From Mytilus edulis (taxonomy: Eukaryota): a stretch of 64,000 nt of DNA. A model generated the notes under the pieces. The model had not been told where the DNA came from. It did not search any database and saw nothing but the letters and a program-made list of their open reading frames with translations. The position numbers were made by a program, and so were the translations under genes. Of this stretch, positions 1-52,060 are shown piece by piece. The DNA is taken from positions 6,820,001 to 6,884,000 of the forward strand of contig NC_092352.1 in assembly GCF_963676685.1 (NCBI RefSeq), given 5' to 3'. How positions within the stretch are numbered: position 1 is the stretch's first letter; every line of letters begins with the position of its first letter.

Positions 1-423
1 AATTTCCAACTACAACGTCGAAACTTACCACATGTAATTTTTAACTAAAGTTTAAGTTGTTCGTGTGTATCAATAAAACATATATAAATTAATCCGGACA
101 ATTGATCAACAAGCTTCAACGGTTTTCATCAATAAGGTTAAAGGTCAACGATCATAAAGTTTTAATCTTTAGAAACAAAACCGGACAAAACTGTACACTT
201 TCCGTAATTATGAAACAATATAGTTTGTAAAATGTATGTAATAACCATGAACTGTAAAACTAACAAACTATGATCTTATATATTAATTCACTGAATAAAT
301 TCCCTGGTTATCCAGTGACTAATTCACAGGGATACTCGGCCAACTGCTGTAGGTCGAGTAATTTGTTACAACAGCAAAGAAAAGTGCAATAAAGACATTA
401 TTTTATTAAAAAAAAAAAAAAAG
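1..423 (+). mobile_element. 3' end of a polyadenylated retroposed insertion (probable LINE 3' UTR) interrupting TRIM copy 1
   Basis: 9-bp hairpin TACTCGGCC..GGTCGAGTA (333-360), AATAAA (388-393), A-run ending ~422. Homology with copy 2 (11659 onward) starts abruptly at 424, where copy 2 has uninterrupted coiled-coil coding sequence upstream. Confidence 0.65.
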
Positions 424-1074
424 AAAGAAAAATCAAAAGCATCAGATTTTATTACTGAACTTGAAGAAAAAAAAGAACAACTGGATAAAATAAAAGACTA
501 TATCCCTACAGTAATGACACATAGTTCAAAACTGCTATCATTCCTAGGTGTACATCAGATTAAACAACAAGTACATCAATGTCAACAATATGTTGATGAT
601 CTGGAGGATGATGAGAGGACCAAAGAAGTTGACATCAAAATGAAGCAAAATAATGAAATAGAAGAGACCATTAACAAAATAGGATCGCTTGGATCCCTAG
701 GAGACGTGATAGTTGTTAAAACGCATATACCAATGAATAGAGAAACAGATGTGAAGAGGGAAGCACAAGTAGAAACACGAGAACGATCCAACATAAATAT
801 TATGTCCATGAAGATTGAAACAAAGAGAGAGATCAACATTGGGAAGTGGATTAGGAACATGCTATGTCTGAGGGATGGTAGAGTTATAGCTATTAAATAG
901 TTTGGTACAGTTAACTTATTTTCTTTTACTAGCAAAATTCAGAAACATTTTGTAATACCTGGTGAGGCCTACAGTGTTACACAGATCAATCAGTTTACCA
1001 TTGCCTTAACTTATCCTGGCGAGAAAGCCATTAAGATCTTTAATATGGAGAAAACAAAAGTTACTAAAGTTATC

Positions 1075-1251
1075 GATAAAATTAACGGTACCAATTTTCT
1101 TGCACCAGATGCGCATTTCGACAATACATGTCTCTTCAGTGATGCTCGTGGCCAAAATATTTGAAATCCAAAGCTTATATAAAAGATGAAGAGCTATAAT
1201 CAAAAAGGTCCAAAAAGTATAGCCAAATCCGTGAAAGGAATCAGAGCTTTG
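1075..1251 (-). mobile_element. 177-bp hammerhead-carrying insertion (probable Penelope-like/retrozyme fragment)
   Basis: Absent from the paralogue (GTTATC|AAATTAGAC at ~41920); flanked by TATC (1071-1074 and 1252-1255). Confidence 0.85.
1102..1145 (-). ncRNA. Minimal type I hammerhead ribozyme
   Basis: Minus strand GCAUCA-CUGAAGA-GACA(UGUAU)UGUC-GAAA-U(GCGC)A-UC^UGGUGC: helix I 6 bp, CUGANGA and GAAA core, helix II 4 bp, palindromic short helix III, AUC cleavage triplet. Confidence 0.88.
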
Positions 1252-2270
1252 TATCAAAGTAGACAGAGTATGCAGGGGTTTGTCATTCGCCAATAATTCT
1301 CTGGCTGTAGGTTTAGATAGAGATGACATCCGCATTATAGACCTGGAAGGTAATACACTGAAGTCAATACAAGTTTGGAGTCAGTCATACCTGTTTCATC
1401 TTGTTTACTGTAAACAGAGTAACCTATAGTGATAGTGATGGTAAGGTGGTATGCTCTGTTGATGATTCAGGAAAACAGATCTGGCAATATAAACAGGATT
1501 TAACAGGACCAAGAGGACTTTGTACAGATACTTATGGTAACATTATAGCAGCAGACGGTAAATCGAGGAGAATAATAGTAATATCAAAAGATGGACAGGG
1601 TAGTAAAGTTCTGATTAATCAAGAGAAAAACGGACAGGGTAGTAAAGTACTGATTAATGAAGAGGATGGACTAATGTTTCCTCAGTGTATTAGTAAACAT
1701 AATGAGTCATCAGGTTTTATTGGTGATTACTTAGACAAATACTTGGTAAAATTCAATTTATCATATGAATAAGAAAAACACTGAAGAATATTTTCTATCA
1801 AATGATAAAAGGTGTTAGATTCATCACAAGTAAAGAATTTTGGTGTGTGCCTGAATATATTGCGAGAGGAAATTTAGACCAGTGTCAAGTTAAAAATAAA
1901 GTGTAAAGTTCAAACAACTAATCAGAACATTTACGTATATAAAACTATAGATGGAATATGTCTACTATTATGTTTTTATTGGTAACATAATACTCTCTCT
2001 AATGATATTATTGTATTCATTTGTACTTCAGATTTCAACTTAATATTTTTTATACAGCATATAGTTATATATTATACAGCTTTAGCTATCTTCGATGGCT
2101 ACTTGTAGTAGAGCATACATTTAGACTCTCTTTTCCGAATTATATGTCATTCTCTCCTTTTCTTGTTCAAATTGCTGTTTATACTGTTTATTGCCACACA
2201 GGGTTTGTTATTGTGTGATTTGCGTTTTCTACAATTCGTCTAGTACACCAAAGAAAGTATATCTGCACAT

Positions 2271-11339: not shown

Positions 11340-12998
11340 GTCATGCCCTGGTCATTTAATGCCTTGCTGTGATGAATGTATTCTTAATTGTCATTCCAAA
11401 TGTACTGGGATAAAAAGTTTAGCTAGTGTAGTAGAAGCAAACATAATGGAAAAATCAAAAGAACCTTTAGAAAAATATATAAACTCCATCTTAGACATCT
11501 TGAATAAAATTGAGACCAACAAAATAGGAAATATCAAAAGAGGAGAACAACAGTGTTACAGCATCAGAGGCAGGATTGCAGAATTTCGAAATAAAATAAA
11601 TGAACATTTAGACGAACTAGAGAATAAGTTATGCCAAGAAGCAGAAACCGTCCTGAATAAAGAAAAATCAAAAGCATCAGATTTAATTACTGAACTCGAA
11701 GAAAAAAAAAGAACAACTGGATACAATAAAGACTATATCCCCACAGTAATGACACATAGTTCAAAACTGCTATCATTCCTAGGTGTACATCAGATTGAAC
11801 AACAAGTACATCAATGTCAACAATATGTTGATGATCTGGAGGATGATGAGAAGACCAAAGAAGTTGACATCAAAATGAAGCAAAATACTGAAATAGAAGA
11901 GACCATCAACAAAATAGGATAGCTTGAATCCCTAGGAGACGTAATAGTTGTTAAAACGCATATATATATACCAATGAATAGAAAAACAGATGTGAAGAGG
12001 GAAGCACAAGTATAAACACGAGAACGATCCAACATAAATATTATGTCCATGAAGATTGAAACAAAGAGAGAGATCAACATTGGGAAGTGGATTAGGAACA
12101 TGCTATGTCTGAGGGATGGTAGAGTTATAGCTATTAAATAGTTTGGTACAGTTAACTTATTTTCTGTTACTAGCAAAATTCAGAAACATTTTGTAATACC
12201 TGGTGAGGCCTACAGTGTTACACAGATCAATCAGTTTACCATTGCCTTAACTTATCCTGGCGAGAAAGCCATTAAGATCTTTAATATGGAGAAAACAAAA
12301 GTTACTAAAGTTATCGATAAAATTAACGGTACCAATTTTCTTGCACCAGATGCGCATTTCGACAAAACATGTCTCTTCAGTGATGCTCGTGGCCAAAATA
12401 TTTGAAATCCAAAGCTTATATAAAAGATGAAGAGCTATAATCAAAGAGGTCCAAAAAGTATAGCCAAATCCGTGAAAGGAATCAGAGCTTTGTATCAAAG
12501 TAGACAGAGTATGCAGGGGTTTGTCATTCGCCAATAATTCTCTGGCTGTAGGTTTAGATAGAGATGACATCCGCATTATAGACCTGGAAGGTAATACACT
12601 GAAGTCAATACAAGTTTGGAGTCAGTCATACCTGTTTCATCTTGTTTACTGTAAACAGAGTAACCTATAGTGATAGTGATGGTAAGGTGGTATGCTCTGT
12701 TGATGATTCAGGAAAACAGATCTTTTTAACAGGACCAAGAGGACTTTGTTCAGATACTTATGGTAACAATATAGTAGCAGACGGTAGATCGAGGAGAATA
12801 ATAGTAATATCAAAAGATGGACAGGGTAGTAAAGTTCTGATTAATCAAGAGAAAAACGGACAGGGTAGTAAAGTACTGATTAATGAAGAGGATGGACTAA
12901 TGTTTCCTCAGTGTATTAGTAAACATAATGAGTCATCAGGTTTTATTGGTGATTACTTAGACAAATACTTGGTAAAATTCAATTTATCATATGAATAA
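11340..12998 (+). pseudogene. TRIM/NHL-like pseudogene, copy 2 (starts mid B-box 2 at the duplication junction)
   Basis: CPGHLMPCCDEC..HSKC half B-box, coiled coil and propeller. Shares copy 1's lesions and adds TAG at 11920, an AT-repeat expansion and a ~15-bp deletion near 12723. Confidence 0.9.
12343..12386 (-). ncRNA. Minimal type I hammerhead ribozyme (duplicate, inside insertion 12316-12492)
   Basis: Identical to 1102-1145 except one substitution in the helix II loop. Confidence 0.88.
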
Positions 12999-26600: not shown

Positions 26601-26809
26601 TTAAGTTTGCCAAACAGATATGTACACCTTTCATTTATTCAATACACCAAATATAAATCACTTTATGTTCACATGTTCAGTATCCGATAAATGGAAAAGA
26701 AAACATTAAAAACTTTACATTGACCAATGAAACATGACAATGAGGTTATGGTCATATGAAAACTGCCCAATAAACTCATCAATGATATCAGGATTAAAAT
26801 TTTATATTT

Positions 26810-26853
26810 ACGCAAGACGCGCGTTTCGTCTACAAAAGACTCATCAGTGACGT
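26810..26853 (-). ncRNA. Minimal type I hammerhead ribozyme (second family)
   Basis: Minus strand ACGUCA-CUGAUGA-GUC(UUUUGUA)GAC-GAAA-C(GCGC)G-UC^UUGCGU; one mismatch in helix I. Confidence 0.82.
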
Positions 26854-28649
26854 TCGAATCAAAACATGTTAAAGACATGTCACAATCATCCAATACACCA
26901 AAAGTAAAGGCCAAATTTCTCAGAGTATTTGCAAATAAGAAAACATAACCTTAATAAAAAGCTGCGCCATTAGCGCATGATATGCCTGTCGCATTTTAAA
27001 GAATAAAGTTCAGTTACTTCTCAATGTTATATCAGAAATTTATTAAAAAATAAAACTAAAGGAAGCTTATACAAACATATATAAATCAGTTGCCAAAGTT
27101 TATTGAAAACTACTGAAAGCACTTTAGGGATATTGTATGAAAACTGGAAAATCACCCCTTTTTTTGTATAATATCACATAATTCGGAAAAGTAAAATCTA
27201 AAATTCCTAATCAAAGAGCTTGAAAGCACTGAAAGTTTAAGTTTGCTTTAATTTATCAGTGGAAGACAAAATTAAGCATTGCATAGTATACAGCATTTAT
27301 TGTAGTTCATTTAGCTATAATCATTGACAATGGAAGATAACTCAAATTTTAAAAATGACTTCAACAATGACATCATTGATATCTTTAGAACAAATATTAG
27401 ATTCCTGCACCATCCACACATTATGTAATATTCTTGAAAAGTATACCGTTATTTTGTATCATGAGTATCTGATCAAATATTTCATCGATAAACTTCTTGA
27501 AATGTTCATGGATAGGATGTATAGAATGTGACTAGTATTGCACTATATTTTGTGTATATCAAAAGTAGTGATGATCCTTGGAAGATTTATATACCAAGTC
27601 AGTAACATAGGATTTTAATTGCATTTCATGCAATCTTTACCCAAAAATCAAAAGGGAGCTCATGTCAACAGATATAAACAATTTACCTGTTACATGAAAA
27701 ATGCTCATTAAATGAGTTGGAGGTCAGATAATTTTTGTCTGACATACATTTAAACCTTTCAAGGAAACATATTTATCAAATTGTTATCCTGTCACTCATA
27801 GTTACTAGCGAGTTTCACATGACAAAATCTTTTTAAGCAGTTGCTGAACCACCAAATGAGCATCATGGTCTACTATCCAACAAAATATAAAGCGTATGCA
27901 AATATTTTAGGTCACCTGGCAGTGTCTGTGGATTGAAATTACTATATCGCATATTTTGTGACTTTAATTGCTATAGACGAGACAAAATTCATTATAAGCT
28001 TTTATGTTATGTCAAGGTCAGATGAACCCTGGATTGATATAAAAAAAAATCCCCAAAACATTACAGATTTGTCGGACTATTAAAGCGGTTCTGTGTTATT
28101 GATGAGTAGAAACTACCACCATTACAAATTGTAAGAGAACCTGGAGTTAATGAATGAGCTGAAATGACAACAAAAAGACCATGTACCCAACATCATTGCA
28201 TTGGTAATACATATAAGATTCAGACCAAAGGGTGTAATCACTAAGTTATCTTTTTTTGTTACTATCATTATTAATGGTGCAGATGACTGAGGAAGAGAAA
28301 GATTGAAATGTAACGAAGCCTACACTTTACATTAGTGATCATATGCGTTTAATAAAGAGATAAAACAAGAATTATTTCACAATTACCATAATAAATACTA
28401 TAAATAGATCTGATCTGAAAAATAGATTAAATGTAATTATCAATATATTGTAGTTCATTATAAGATACAAGGTAGGTCATTTAAATATTTATTGATCACC
28501 TGAATTGAAATGTTTACCTGAATCAGGTATAAACATGTTCTAACTAACTTCCTTGTAGGACGACATTTTGAACAACAGTAAAAGTGTCATAAGAACCGAA
28601 AGGATTTTTCCTGACACCAAAAGGTATCTAGTTAGTATATATTATTCAT

Positions 28650-36546: not shown

Positions 36547-36608
36547 ATACCAGCTGACTGACTTAATACTTAATTTCAGTTACCCTTAATGTTATTAAAA
36601 TATTTTAA

Positions 36609-36915
36609 GGAAAAGTACACCTTGAGTTTCAATAACTCTTAGTGCTCAATAATTTATTTATGGAAAAAATACACCTTGAATTTCAATAACTCTTGGTGTT
36701 CAATAATTTAGTTATGGAAAATACACCTTGAATTTCAATAACTCTTGGTGTTCAATATTTTATTTATGGAAAAATACACCATTGACTTTCAATAACTCTT
36801 AGTGCTCAATAATTTATTTATGGAAAATACACCTTGAATTTCAATAACTCTTGGTGTTCAATAATTTATTTATGGAAAATACACCTTGAGTTTCAATAAC
36901 TCTTGGTGCTCAATA
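36609..36915. repeat. Six tandem 52-54-bp units in the Gypsy 5' leader
   Basis: GGAAAATACACCTTGAATTTCAATAACTCTTGGTGTTCAATAATTTATTTAT repeated. Confidence 0.93.
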
Positions 36916-37026
36916 ATATCATATGTAAACCACAGTTTGAGTTTCAATATAAGCTTCTTTGTATGTTGTTGTTCTTTTTTGTTATGTATTACTTTTTTCC
37001 TTTTTTTTTTTTTAAATGTTCTTTTT

Positions 37027-40062: not shown

Positions 40063-42414
40063 ATGGCATCCAGTAAACCTATACCATGTGGGCCTTGTCA
40101 TGAAGGGCAATTAAACACAAAAGCTGAATTCTGGTGTTACAACTGTGATGAAGGATTATGCTCAGTATGTTCTGGTCATCACAAAAGATCTAAATCATCA
40201 CGTGATCATAAAACCATTGATATTAAAAGGTATAAACCATCCATACAGGCTATTAATACAGTATGTGACAAACATGGTCAACAGTTCAACTTGTATTGCC
40301 CCAGTCATTTAATTCCATGCTGTGATGAATGTATTCCTACTAGTCATTCAAAATGTACAGAAATAACAAGTTTATCTAGTGTAGTAGAGCAAACCAAAAT
40401 GGAAAAATCAAAAGAATCTTTATATAAAGATATAAATTCCATCTTACGCATCTTAAATAGAATAATAACCAACATATCAGGAAATATCAAAAGTGGTGAA
40501 CAACAACGGGACAGCATCAAGAGCATGATTGAAGAATATCGAAAGAAAATAGATAAACATTTAGACAAACTACAGAAGAAGTTATGCCAAGAAACAGACA
40601 CCATGTTGAATAAAGAAACATCAAATGCATCAGATTTAATTAATGAAATTGAAGAAGAAAAAGAAAAATTAGATGGAATGAAGGAATATCTCCAAACCGT
40701 CACAACATATAGGTCAAAACTACAAGCATTTCTAGGAGTACATCAGATTGAACAACAAGTACACCAATGTCAGCGATATGTTGATGATCTGGATGAAGAT
40801 GACAGGTGGAAAGAATTTGACATCAAAATGGAGCAAAATGATGAAATAGAAAAGACCATCAACAAATTAAAATCGCTCGAATCCCTAGGAGAAGTGACAG
40901 TTGTTAAAACAGAAATCCCTATGAATCGTGAAATAGGTATGAAAAGGGAAGCACAAGTAGAAACTCGAGAAAAAACAAATTTACACAACATGAACATCAA
41001 AATTGGCACAAATATAAATATCAACATTGGGAATTGGATAGTAGACACGATTTGTCTGATGGATGGTAGAATCTTAACAGCTAAACAGTATGGCACAGTT
41101 AGCAGTCAGAGCTCAGACATAAACAAGTCGATTTTTGTTTTTGACTTAAATAAGTCGAAACATGTATTTATTATAAAAATGTAGTTTCAATTTTAGACTT
41201 ATCTAAGTCAGAAAATGACAGACTTGTTTAGGTCTATTTATGTTGGTGAAAAAACTTAATGTTACTTTGTGGCCAAACTACACCACCTATGACAGCAAAA
41301 ACCTGTATGAGAGTTCACAAGGACTTGAGCTATCTATATCTAATAATTTAATTGAACATCCTTACTAAACACAGATGTTTTTCCTCATTAAGTGTGATTC
41401 CAGGTGGTTGCATTGTAAGGTTAATTAACATTATCTCCGATTTTTTAGACTCTCATTCATATTTTTCTTTAGAAGACAAAGCATTGGCTTTCAATGTTGT
41501 CATTATTTGATTTAGATGCATGACCTCCTTATAAGTATGCGTGGGTCTTGAAGTTAACCAATTTCGATCACTCATCGACTTGTAGGAGTCGATATTTGCA
41601 ACTTTTTGATTCTGGTCAATTATTTCTTGTTTAACAATATTGGACTTATTCAAGTCGTAATTTGTCTGACATTAAAGGGAGACAAATCCTAAAACTTACA
41701 AGTTTAGACCTCTATGAGTTAAAAGCAGATTCAGACTTATTTATGTCTGAGCTCTGACTGGTTAGTCTACTCTCTTTTGATGGCACGCTTAAGAAACATT
41801 TTGCAATATCTGGTAAAGCCTGGAATGTCACAGAGATCAACCGGGAAACTATTGCCATAACTTATCCTAAGGAGATGGCCATTAAGATCTTTAATATGGA
41901 GAACGAAACAGTTACCAAGGTTATCAAATTAGACAAAACATGCAAGGGTTTGTCATTCTCCAATAATTCGTTAGCTGTAGGTTTGGATACAGCAGAAGTC
42001 CGTATCATAGACGTTGAAGGAAATACACTAAAGTCAATACAAGTTAAGAGTAAATCACCACTGGATCACCTTATTTATTGTAATGGCAGAGTAATTTATA
42101 GTGACTGGAGAGGTAAAGCAGTATGCTGTGTTGCTGGATCAGGTGAACACATCTGGCAATATACACACGATTTATCAGAACCAAGAGGACATTGTATAGA
42201 TACGTATGGTAACATTATAGTAGCAGACAGAGCAACAAATAGAATGATAGCAATATCAAAAGATGGACAGAGTAGTAAAGTATTGATTAGTGGAAAAAAG
42301 GGTGGACTGGAATTTCCGGAGTGTATTTGTTTTAGTAAGGATAGTGAGTCATCAGGTTTTATTGGTGGTTACTTAGGCAGATACTTAATAGAATTCAGTT
42401 TGTCTTATGAATAA
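40063..42414 (+). pseudogene. RING-less TRIM/NHL-like gene (B-box1, B-box2, coiled coil, beta-propeller) interrupted by a MITE; 562 aa if restored
   Basis: MASSKPIPCGPC..WCYNCDEGLCSVCSGHH..DH and CDKH..YCPSH..CCDEC..HSKC. Splice acceptor TTTGTTTTCTCAAG just before the ATG. Joining 40063-41102 to 41766-42414 gives a 1689-nt open frame. Confidence 0.92.
41103..41760. mobile_element. 658-bp MITE, CAG-starting TIRs, 5-bp TSD GTTAG
   Basis: TIR CAGTCAGAGCTCAGACATAAA perfect for 21 bp; GTTAG at 41098-41102 and 41761-41765; repeated GACTT-N4-AAGTC subterminal palindromes. Confidence 0.93.
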
Positions 42415-48087: not shown

Positions 48088-48968
48088 AACTGGAGGCTCT
48101 CAAGAGCCTGTATCGCTCACCTGACTCTAATTGGATTTTTGAAATCATATCAAAAAGATAAGGTTTTGCTACAAAGTACCAACACTTGGTAAGCATCTAA
48201 TAAGGAACGTTCATTCTATGTTTGGTCTCATTCCATTCTGTGGTTCTCTAAAAAAAAGTCATTTGTATGCATTTCCCATAGGGTCCTTTGTTAAACTAAG
48301 TCCCCATCTGGCGGTCATCTTGGTTGATGGATCGGCTACAAAGTAACAACACTTGGTCAGCACCTCATCAGGAACATTCATGCCATGGTTGGTTTCATTC
48401 CATTCTGTGGTTCTCTAAAAAAGTCATTTAAATGCATTTCCCGTAGGGTCCTATGTTAAACTTAGTCCCCAGCTGGCGGTGATCTTGGACTTTGGATCGG
48501 CAACAAAGTAACAACACTTGGTTAGCATTTCATTATGACTTTCATGCTATGTTTGGTTTCATTCCATTCAGTGGTTCTCTAAAAGAGGACATTTGTATGT
48601 ATTTTCCATAGGGTCCTATGTTAAAACCAGACCCCCGCTGGTGGCCATCTTCGATGGTGGATCGGCGACAAAGTAACAACACTTGGTCAGCATCCCATAA
48701 GGATCATTCATGCTATTTTTGACTTCATTCCATTCAGTGGTTCTCTAAAAGAAGTCATGTGTATGCATGTTCCATAGGGTTCTATGTTAAACTAAGTCCC
48801 CCGCTGGCGGTCATCTTGGTTGATGGATCGGCTACAAAGTAGCAGCACTTGGTCAACACCTCATTAGGAACATTCATGCCACGTTTGGTTTCATTCAATT
48901 TAGTGGTTCTCTAAAAGAAGTCATTTGTATGCATTTCTCATAGTCCTTCGGGCCAAATGAGCTAAAAA
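48088..48968. repeat. HINE-like element with ~5 tandem ~163-bp satellite units
   Basis: CCATAGGGTCCTATGTTAAAC..GGCGGTCATCTTGG..AACACTTGGTCAGC..GGTTCTCTAAAA repeated; short palindromes at both ends. Confidence 0.85.
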
Positions 48969-49262: not shown

Positions 49263-50357
49263 TAACAAGAGTGCACACGCTGAAATGTCTCGCCTTCTTT
49301 ACTAATCATTGATATTATGTTGATAGTCCTAAATAGAAAGCTTTATTACAACTGTCTCTTAAACTTAACATTAACCAAGAAAACTTAACATTGACCAATG
49401 AATCATGAAAATGAGGTCAAAGTCAGATTAACTATGCCAGGCAGGCATTTACAGCTAACAATTCTTCCATACAACAAATATAGTTGTCCTATTTCTTATA
49501 GTTTTAGAAAAACAGACCAAAACACAAAACTCAACACTGAGCAATGAACCGTGAAAATGAGGTCAAGGTCGAATAAAACCTGCTCTGCTGACATATAGAT
49601 CATAAAATATTTCCTTACACCTAATATAGTTGACCTATTACATATAGTATTAGAAATTAAGACAGAAACTTCAAAACTTTGACCACTGAACCATGAAAAT
49701 GAGGTCAAGGTCGAATGACACCTGCCAGTTAGAAATGTACTCCTTACAATCATTTCATACACCAAAAATAGTAGACCTATTGTATATAGTATAAGAAAAA
49801 CAGACCAAAACACAAAAACTTAACTATTACCACTGAAAATGAGGTCAAGGTCAGATGACACCTTTCAGTTGGACGTGTACACCTAACAGTCTTCCCATAC
49901 ACCGAATATACTAGACCTATTGCTTATAGTATCTGAGATATGGACCTGACCATCAAAAGTTAACCTTATTCACTGATCCATGCAATGAGGTCGAGGTCAA
50001 TTGAAAACTGTATGACGGGCATGAGGTGCTTGCAAGGTATACATATAGTCACATACCATATATAGTTATCCTATTACTTATAATAAGAGAGAAGTTAACA
50101 TTACAAAAAAATTTAACTTTTTTTTTAAGTAGTCACTAGACCATGAAAATGAGGTCAAGGACATTTGACATGTGACGGACGGAAACTTCCTAACATGAGA
50201 CATTCATTTACAAAGTATGAAGCATCCAGGTCTTCCATGTTTGAAAATATAAAGCTTTTAAGAAGTTAACTAATGCCGCGGCGGCTGTAGCCACCGCCTT
50301 CAGATCACTATCCCTATGTCAAGCGTTCTAGGACAAAAAGCAAAGGCTCGACAAAAA
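49263..50357. repeat. HINE-like element with ~7 tandem ~130-170-bp units
   Basis: CCATGAAAATGAGGTCAAGGTC recurs at ~49403, 49550, 49691, 49834, 49977 and 50141; AACAAGAGTG start, GCC-rich stretch and hairpin end. Confidence 0.8.
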
Positions 50358-51129: not shown

Positions 51130-52060
51130 AATACGGTTTAGGAGTTGGTTTCTCAATCTTTTACAAGTTCTCAAAACACACATAAGAGGATGTGAGTGAC
51201 CCTAGGGACTATCCCTATTTTTCATTTGATTTTTTATATTGTCCCATACATGAATATATATGGTTTAGGGGTGGGGGACCCCAGTGACTTCCCCTATATT
51301 TCATTTGATTTGGTATATTGTCCAATATATGAATATATATGGTTGAGGGGTGGGGATCTCATATGTTTCCAAGTTATCAAACATGATTGGGTAGGGTGAC
51401 CCTTAGGACTCTCCCTATATTTCATTTGATTTGTTCTTTTGTCCCATTCATGAAAATATATGGTTTAATTTAAGGTTAGGATCTCGACTGTTTCGAAGTT
51501 GCCAAACAACAGGAGGGGTTGGGTGACCGCAGGGACTTCCCCTATATTTCATTTGATTTGTTATTTAGTCCCATACATGAGTATATATGGTAACGTGGTG
51601 AGGATCTCGACTGTTTTCAAGTTCTCAAACATGAGGGTGCAGTGACCCTAGGGACGCCCGCTATAATTCATTTGATTTGTTATATTTTTAAATACATGAA
51701 TATATATGATTTATGGAGGGGGTCTCAACCGTTTCCATGAGATCAAACAGGAAGGGGTAGCGTGGCCCCACGAACTCCACCTATATTTCGTATGATTTGT
51801 TATATTGTCCCATACATGAATACATATGGTTTAGGGGTGGGGATCTCGACCGTTTCCAAGTTCTCAAACAGGAGGGGTGGGATGACCCACAGGGACTCCC
51901 CCTATATTTCATTTGATTTATTATATTGTCCAATACATGAATATATATGGTTTAGGAGTGGGGATCTCGACTGTTTCAAAGTTCCCAAACAGGAGTGGTG
52001 GATCTCATCCGTTTCAAAGTTATCAAACAGGAGGGGGTAGAGTGCCCCAAAGGACTTCAC
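51130..52060. repeat. Tandem ~120-bp satellite, about 7-8 units
   Basis: GTGACCC.AGGGAC..CCCTATATTTCATTTGATTTG..CATGAATATATATGGTTTAGGGGTGGGGATCTC repeated. Confidence 0.9.

Follow-up and report, generated by a model that had tools for sequence, protein, structure and literature searches.

What carried a complete hammerhead ribozyme into a TRIM-like coding exon of the mussel Mytilus edulis, on the strand opposite to the gene, and what has it done there? The locus lies in a stretch of 64,000 nucleotides of contig NC_092352.1 (RefSeq assembly GCF_963676685.1, positions 6,820,001 to 6,884,000), the whole of which we call the window (Table 1). The original prediction described an insert of 177 bp between duplicated TATC sites that contains a complete hammerhead on the minus strand, all of which was confirmed by the sequence and by an empty site in a paralog within the window (40063-42414, 80% identical), where TATC is single and the insert absent. 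The insert is also absent from 18/18 further paralogs examined. From sequence comparison we propose, with a probability of roughly 0.78, that the insert is a 5′-truncated, likely dead half-copy of a hammerhead retrozyme, likely inserted by the reverse transcriptase/endonuclease of a Naiad, a clade of Penelope-like elements (PLEs).

Table 1 Features of the locus and of its relatives in the window (window coordinates).
Feature	Position	Strand	Remark
3′ part of broken B-box/coiled-coil/beta-propeller (TRIM-like) coding exon, copy 1	421..1772	+	
In-frame TAG upstream of insert	898..900	+	common to both duplicates; CAG in window paralog
Target-site duplication TATC, left copy	1071..1074	+	sequence and paralog comparison
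Retrozyme family 1, 5′-truncated copy	1075..1251	-	177 of 350 bp; without Naiad-type leader
Stretch from cut site to the family's fixed RNA 3′ end	1076..1107	-	32 nt; 57/58 loci
Type I hammerhead motif	1102..1145	-	predicted cut between 1108 and 1107
Palindromic helix III, AUGCGCAU	1116-1109		2 bp and 4-nt loop as monomer; 8-bp duplex as dimer
In-frame TGA brought in by insert	1162..1164	+	
Target-site duplication TATC, right copy	1252..1255	+	sequence and paralog comparison
Partial gene copy 2	11344..12998	+	with further stops
Duplicate of insert	12316..12492	-	within 11.2-kb tandem duplication
Second hammerhead, retrozyme family 2a	26810..26853	-	short truncated insert with similar fixed end
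Empty site (single TATC) in paralog	41922..41925	+	

The insert matches unit positions 1-176 of a 350-bp array elsewhere in the genome (locus L012) and is 97-99% identical to its best genomic copies, many of which lie within 350-bp arrays. The suspected affinity with retrozymes and Penelope elements was thus borne out, the genomic search for a parent element having led to arrays of 350-bp hammerhead retrozymes, while the picture of a lone motif had to be completed: the hammerhead is whole but forms part of the 3′ half of a 350-bp tandem unit. An active retrozyme would hold a full unit and at least two tandem hammerheads; the insert is a half-copy and likely dead, because it lacks the leader described below and has one ribozyme only. 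By itself it is ordinary, one among thousands of broken copies of a published repeat. Its duplicate sits 11,241 bp downstream, with the hammerhead at 12343-12386. As predicted, the two ribozyme copies differ at 1125 alone, in the helix II loop; a further difference between the inserts, at 1205, falls outside it. That the ribozymes differ only in this loop does not point to selection, because a single change would fall in a 5-7-nt loop of a 44-nt motif by chance in about 11-16% of cases and the same variant is found in 14/131 family units.

The motif contains CUGANGA, GAAA and UH in order, with three helices and an open helix I, as expected of a type I hammerhead. On the minus strand, helix I pairs 1145-1140 with 1107-1102 (6 bp including one G-U), the CUGAAGA core occupies 1139-1133, helix II pairs 1132-1129 with 1123-1120, and the GAAA core lies at 1119-1116. 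It is not a chance match, because the core pattern has 4,601 exact matches genome-wide versus 0 for a reversed control and because helices I-III covary (6/13 pairs changed on both sides, 92% of cells paired in 10 sequences from four repeat families). A looser hammerhead pattern matched the window 28 times versus 8 expected, mostly without helices. An Rfam scan of the window returned 0 matches at the gathering score, and the predicted folding of the motif is not better than that of shuffled sequences (z 0.16, -0.77, 0.55); in three contexts its hammerhead fold lies 5-11 kcal/mol above the ensemble, and unconstrained folding does not pick it out. Among genomic copies, core and stems are the more conserved part: in 54 family-1 units from loci not selected by the core pattern, core and stems deviate at 21/1,944 cells versus 184/7,506 elsewhere (column permutation p 0.004), and the core is intact in 48 of the units. 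Two phrasings of the original prediction served less well. "Minimal" is loose, as a 6-bp helix I, a 4-bp helix II and a short palindromic helix III make up the ordinary metazoan type I form under the definitions in PMC4209133; and efficient cleavage only as a dimer is doubtful, since a single mussel retrozyme repeat, from one of two families, is reported to cleave co-transcriptionally at about 0.1/min (PMC7229834). Nor is this a hammerhead of a PLE pLTR (repeats flanking an RT-EN ORF, with helix III absent or reduced): family-1 units adjoin host DNA or other units, and helix III is present.

The parent repeat, here called family 1, consists of non-coding 350-bp tandem units of 37.7% GC without LTR structure, each feature within the description of metazoan non-LTR retrozymes (a hammerhead in 150-450-bp tandem units, GC <50%). 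By description, it fits the non-LTR retrozyme published from Mytilus galloprovincialis, for which about 5,000 hammerheads, 350-390-bp repeats, two families and abundant circles are reported (PMC7229834). Family 2 has 15,117 exact core matches in the genome, and a third hammerhead family of about 545-bp units has 724 matches to its own motif, bringing the exact motif counts of the three families to about 4,600, 15,100 and 700. Family 3 was considered as a possible autonomous partner and rejected, as it proved to be another non-coding repeat; the leader block is absent from it. Family 3 (L171-L185) has a ribozyme close to that of family 1, it is present in RNA reads, and some of its copies adjoin frames of PLEs with a C-terminal endonuclease (L187, L194, L203). 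Further hammerhead variants were seen in passing: the family 2a copy in the window (26770-26870) has two weakening changes in helix I, another variant carries a family-1-like tail (L199:6803-6877), and a different hammerhead-like motif occurs as two inverted copies beside a GIY-YIG frame (L137).

Family 1 is present in all four RNA runs searched (848-2,657 reads), which may come from a sister species. In three of the four the read skew fits the ribozyme strand, if the libraries were stranded in the usual way. In each run 61-327 reads wrap around with a period of 350 nt, as either circles or tandem transcripts would yield. Read ends do not accumulate at the cut site in these four runs, whose libraries are fragmented.

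Ends were mapped at 58 family-1 loci (the first 59 clusters among 100 listed core-match places, less L047, which is near-identical to L046). The RNA 3′ end falls within -10..+5 of unit position 1 in 57/58 loci (45 of them within -3..0), a fixed point 32 nt past the cut site. Insertion lengths run from 74 to 2,421 bp, with less than one unit in 32/58 loci, and the 5′ ends are scattered: those of 25 multi-unit loci are consistent with a uniform distribution (KS p 0.09), and only one lies near the cut site. Duplications of at least 4 nt flank 28/58 sites versus 14.5 expected from swapped flanks. A fixed 3′ end, variable 5′ truncation and partial tandems are the form of Penelope-type insertions. 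In family 2 the corresponding junction lies 41 or 47 nt past the cut and is where 19/26 loci end, while 5/26 have more of the repeat upstream and 2/26 end short. Because the distance from the cut differs in this way, the insertion end follows not the ribozyme but the leader, by which we mean the block most alike in families 1 and 2 (86% over 74 nt), immediately 3′ of the fixed end in the RNA.

A search of the genome for GIY-YIG endonucleases led to a locus that carries this same block. The locus (L186) has an open frame of 1,053 codons that combines an N-terminal GIY-YIG, CxC, GPKF and DKA motifs and a C-terminal RT in one ORF; an N-terminal GIY-YIG with CxC, GxKF, DKA and RT is diagnostic of Naiads (PMC8557442), and the element, our Naiad family A, is near-identical to the published Naiad_Mgal (supplement of PMC8557442). 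Two further Naiad families, B and C, have open frames of 1,007 and 1,000 codons, and the A and C proteins are 61% identical over 167 residues. In all three intact families a covarying hairpin of roughly 90 nt forms the 5′ leader and ends at the start codon, the block spanning from the tandem junction to the in-frame ATG. The retrozyme block beats all 100 shuffles in 13/14 Naiad loci (z 6.5-24), the closest leader being that of family C (85.5% over 69 nt, E 4.6e-18). It was found in only 1/18 loci of PLEs with a C-terminal endonuclease, weakly (z 4.4) and away from the junction, a comparison weakened because many of the 18 loci may lack true 5′ ends.

The likeness extends to structure and register. 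The same outer leader fold is predicted in five families, and 13/31 pairs change on both sides, with 96% of cells paired versus 37-47% in slid controls (10 related rows, from which the structure itself was derived); the inner helix follows the minimum-energy fold, which showed better covariation than an alternative pairing. The tandem units and the outer ends of Naiads fall at the same junction as the fixed end of the retrozymes, with TA the commonest preceding pair in both (12/24, 14/30 and 25/35 in the Naiads versus 37/56 in the retrozyme), although TA may reflect priming or target choice because it is also the template's next pair. Beyond the leader, we found no sequence common to the retrozyme and the Naiads, including Naiad 3′ ends. 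The retrozyme thus carries the same predicted signal at the same register as the Naiads, as a non-autonomous partner would, the signal function being putative. A search for permuted hammerheads in the Naiads, covering the terminal 1.3 kb of one copy from each of families A, B and C, found no exact CUGANGA. The link between retrozymes and Naiads at the level of families appears well supported, and because the same folded leader stands beside the same fixed end, the Naiad enzyme likely inserts the retrozymes.

Several features of these elements fall outside that comparison. Naiad family C has dozens of copies (L264, L265, L267, L274 and others) with open frames near 1,000 codons, identical scores and tandem units of 3,370 bp; because so many open copies score identically, the family is probably very young. 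Naiad family A holds an extra perfect hairpin inside its leader (L186:4956-4985), seen neither in B and C nor in the retrozymes, while in retrozyme families 1 and 2 an additional UUCG hairpin, which covaries, immediately precedes the leader ATG (region of L012:1406-1430). Fragments of the 3′ ends of Naiad families A, B and C lie in the window, at about 10000 and elsewhere.

These features suggest a route of mobilisation. Tandem source arrays would be transcribed, and the hammerhead would cut the transcripts into 350-nt monomers that would close into circles; circularisation of mussel retrozyme monomers is published, with circles as the dominant form (PMC7229834). A Naiad protein would bind the leader hairpin and nick AT-rich DNA, and cDNA would start 7 nt 5′ of the hairpin, inside the RNA, by internal initiation. 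Reverse transcription would then cross the cut/ligation site after 32 nt and run on for 0.2 to about 7 units. Because a cleaved linear monomer would give just 32 nt of cDNA, the template would be a circle, an uncut multimer or a series of template jumps. At the window locus, synthesis would have begun at 1075/1076 and stopped after 177 nt, before the leader, so that the resulting copy would be unable to recruit the enzyme or to release a monomer. We infer binding, nicking and priming by the Naiad protein from sequence; in vitro, the protein of a Poseidon PLE nicks AT-rich DNA, starts cDNA internally and needs RNA 3′ of the start (PMC11167929). In its fullest form, the proposal makes mussel retrozymes chimeras in which a hammerhead is joined to the 5′ leader of a Naiad, this leader being a portable signal 7 nt from which the Naiad RT starts and copies round the 350-nt circle, and to this we give even odds.

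Since units are identical within just 3/12 multi-unit arrays (4, 3 and 2 copies), a single circular template is not the sole reading. The enzyme might instead copy an uncut linear multimer from a source array, with circles as a side product, an account to which we give somewhat less than an even chance. The 1-22 differences among units in the other 9/12 arrays favour it, as do the finding that uncut RNA is the main in vitro substrate of the Poseidon PLE and the continued insertion of its ribozyme mutants (PMC11167929); Naiads, in whose last 1.3 kb no CUGANGA core was found, themselves insert in the same tandem form with a fixed end. The identical units of the three arrays, the dominance of circles in mussels and the conservation of the core among source elements speak against an uncut template.

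At the other end of the problem stands the gene, the 5′ part of whose copy 1 lies 7.1 kb upstream of the window. In the window paralog, B-box domains and a coiled-coil stretch were recognised, together with weak matches to a beta-propeller; no match to a RING was found in it. Insertion before the gene duplication, part of the original prediction, stands, because both copies carry the insert; that the insertion helped to inactivate the gene is unproven, as both copies share two other lesions. The duplicates are 0.4-0.7% apart in their flanks and 1.6% in the coding part. The gene's surroundings hold other repeats: a LINE of 7,109 bp (L090:3312-10000 plus window 1-420), which has long open frames of 441 and 1,272 codons and ends in poly(A), interrupts copy 1 but not copy 2, placing it later than the duplication; a separate insert of about 650 bp (window 41104-41766) sits in the paralog's coding exon; and tandem arrays with periods of about 53-166 bp occupy window 48168-48943, 49380-49932, 51267-52001 and 36569-36949.

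We consider it unlikely that the insertion was the first lesion to inactivate this gene. By adding 181 bp, it shifts the frame by +1 and introduces a stop at 1162-1164, and did so before the duplication; and because copy 1 retains an open frame in its N-terminal 188 codons and across 421-897, the decay is recent, all of which would suit an insertion at the start of it. Both copies also share the upstream in-frame TAG and a 2-bp deletion near 1413, however, and the insert had acquired no private change from its family before the duplication, so that it was itself young. Among 40 matches scored, no paralog was closer than 80%, and no empty allele was seen in two DNA runs, a result uninformative either way on the order of the lesions. 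What the insert does to the exon is what any insertion would do: its ribozyme lies on the opposite strand and, being antisense, cannot cut the gene's mRNA.

Returning to the enzyme, the leader could be a mere relic of Naiad descent, with another PLE of Neptune or Poseidon type now copying the retrozyme. Intact PLEs with a C-terminal endonuclease do exist in the genome, and Xenopus retrozymes are reported to resemble the pLTRs of annotated PLEs (bioRxiv 10.64898/2026.07.22.740005), yet we find this improbable for the mussel, as no other block is so well conserved from family 1 to family 2, compensatory changes preserve the leader's pairs, and wherever a family carries the leader, it fixes the register of the insertion end. 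Least credible of all, and in our judgement very improbable, is that the antisense ribozyme was co-opted to regulate the locus: its core is intact in both copies, but this is expected without co-option because the copies are young, their flanks being 0.4-0.7% apart, and almost no reads fall on the flanking exon outside the insert in two RNA runs, of each of which about 6% was covered.

Insertion by a Naiad enzyme is accordingly the reading we prefer for the window copy as for its family. Which enzyme copies animal retrozymes, and how it primes on an endless circle, has been an open question since 2020; if the proposal is true, it would name both the enzyme and the start site with which an animal circular RNA returns to the genome, and the leader would provide a minimal cis element for inserting any circular RNA. 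With the partner element intact, the RNA hairpin defined and the start point located to the base, all in one genome, the question becomes directly testable in vitro. Our literature search, with the supplements of PMC7229834 and of the Xenopus preprint, subscription papers and Repbase outside its scope, found no published link of mussel retrozymes to Naiads or to the leader.

The known systems each share part of this picture. Family 1 has in common with the M. galloprovincialis retrozyme the genus, a type I hammerhead, 350-bp tandem units, 38% GC, the same order of copy number, more than one family and the presence of RNA (PMC7229834), whereas the window copy is a half unit with one ribozyme; the accessible part of that report describes neither a fixed 3′ end, 5′ truncation nor a specific partner, and names PLEs only as candidates. 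The minimal PLE hammerheads are likewise of type I, with a palindromic helix III and a possible dimer, but in the mussel motif helix I is complete at 6 bp and helix III is closed, and the motif lies outside an ORF-flanking pLTR (compared with the forms described in PMC4209133). The PAc/Poseidon PLE of Anolis shows, as proposed here, an internal start downstream of the hammerhead, a need for 3′ RNA and AT-rich targets (PMC11167929); as described there it is autonomous, with a C-terminal endonuclease, and starts inside the ORF, 85-92 nt past the cut versus 32-47 nt in the mussel. Vertebrate retrozymes, presented as non-autonomous PLEs, also pair tandem hammerhead repeats with PLEs (bioRxiv 10.64898/2026.07.22.740005); there the link is pLTR similarity in Xenopus, whereas in the mussel it is the Naiad 5′ leader, and the arrays are ascribed to later local amplification, whereas mussel arrays end in fractional units at a fixed point. 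As far as the available text of that preprint goes, no mollusc was sampled and Naiads were found only in coral. Closest are the Naiads themselves, which share with the retrozyme the 5′ leader up to the start codon, the fixed 3′ end at the same junction, 5′ truncation, partial tandems and TA at the junction; they encode a GIY-YIG endonuclease and RT, reportedly without canonical hammerheads (PMC8557442), whereas the retrozyme encodes nothing.
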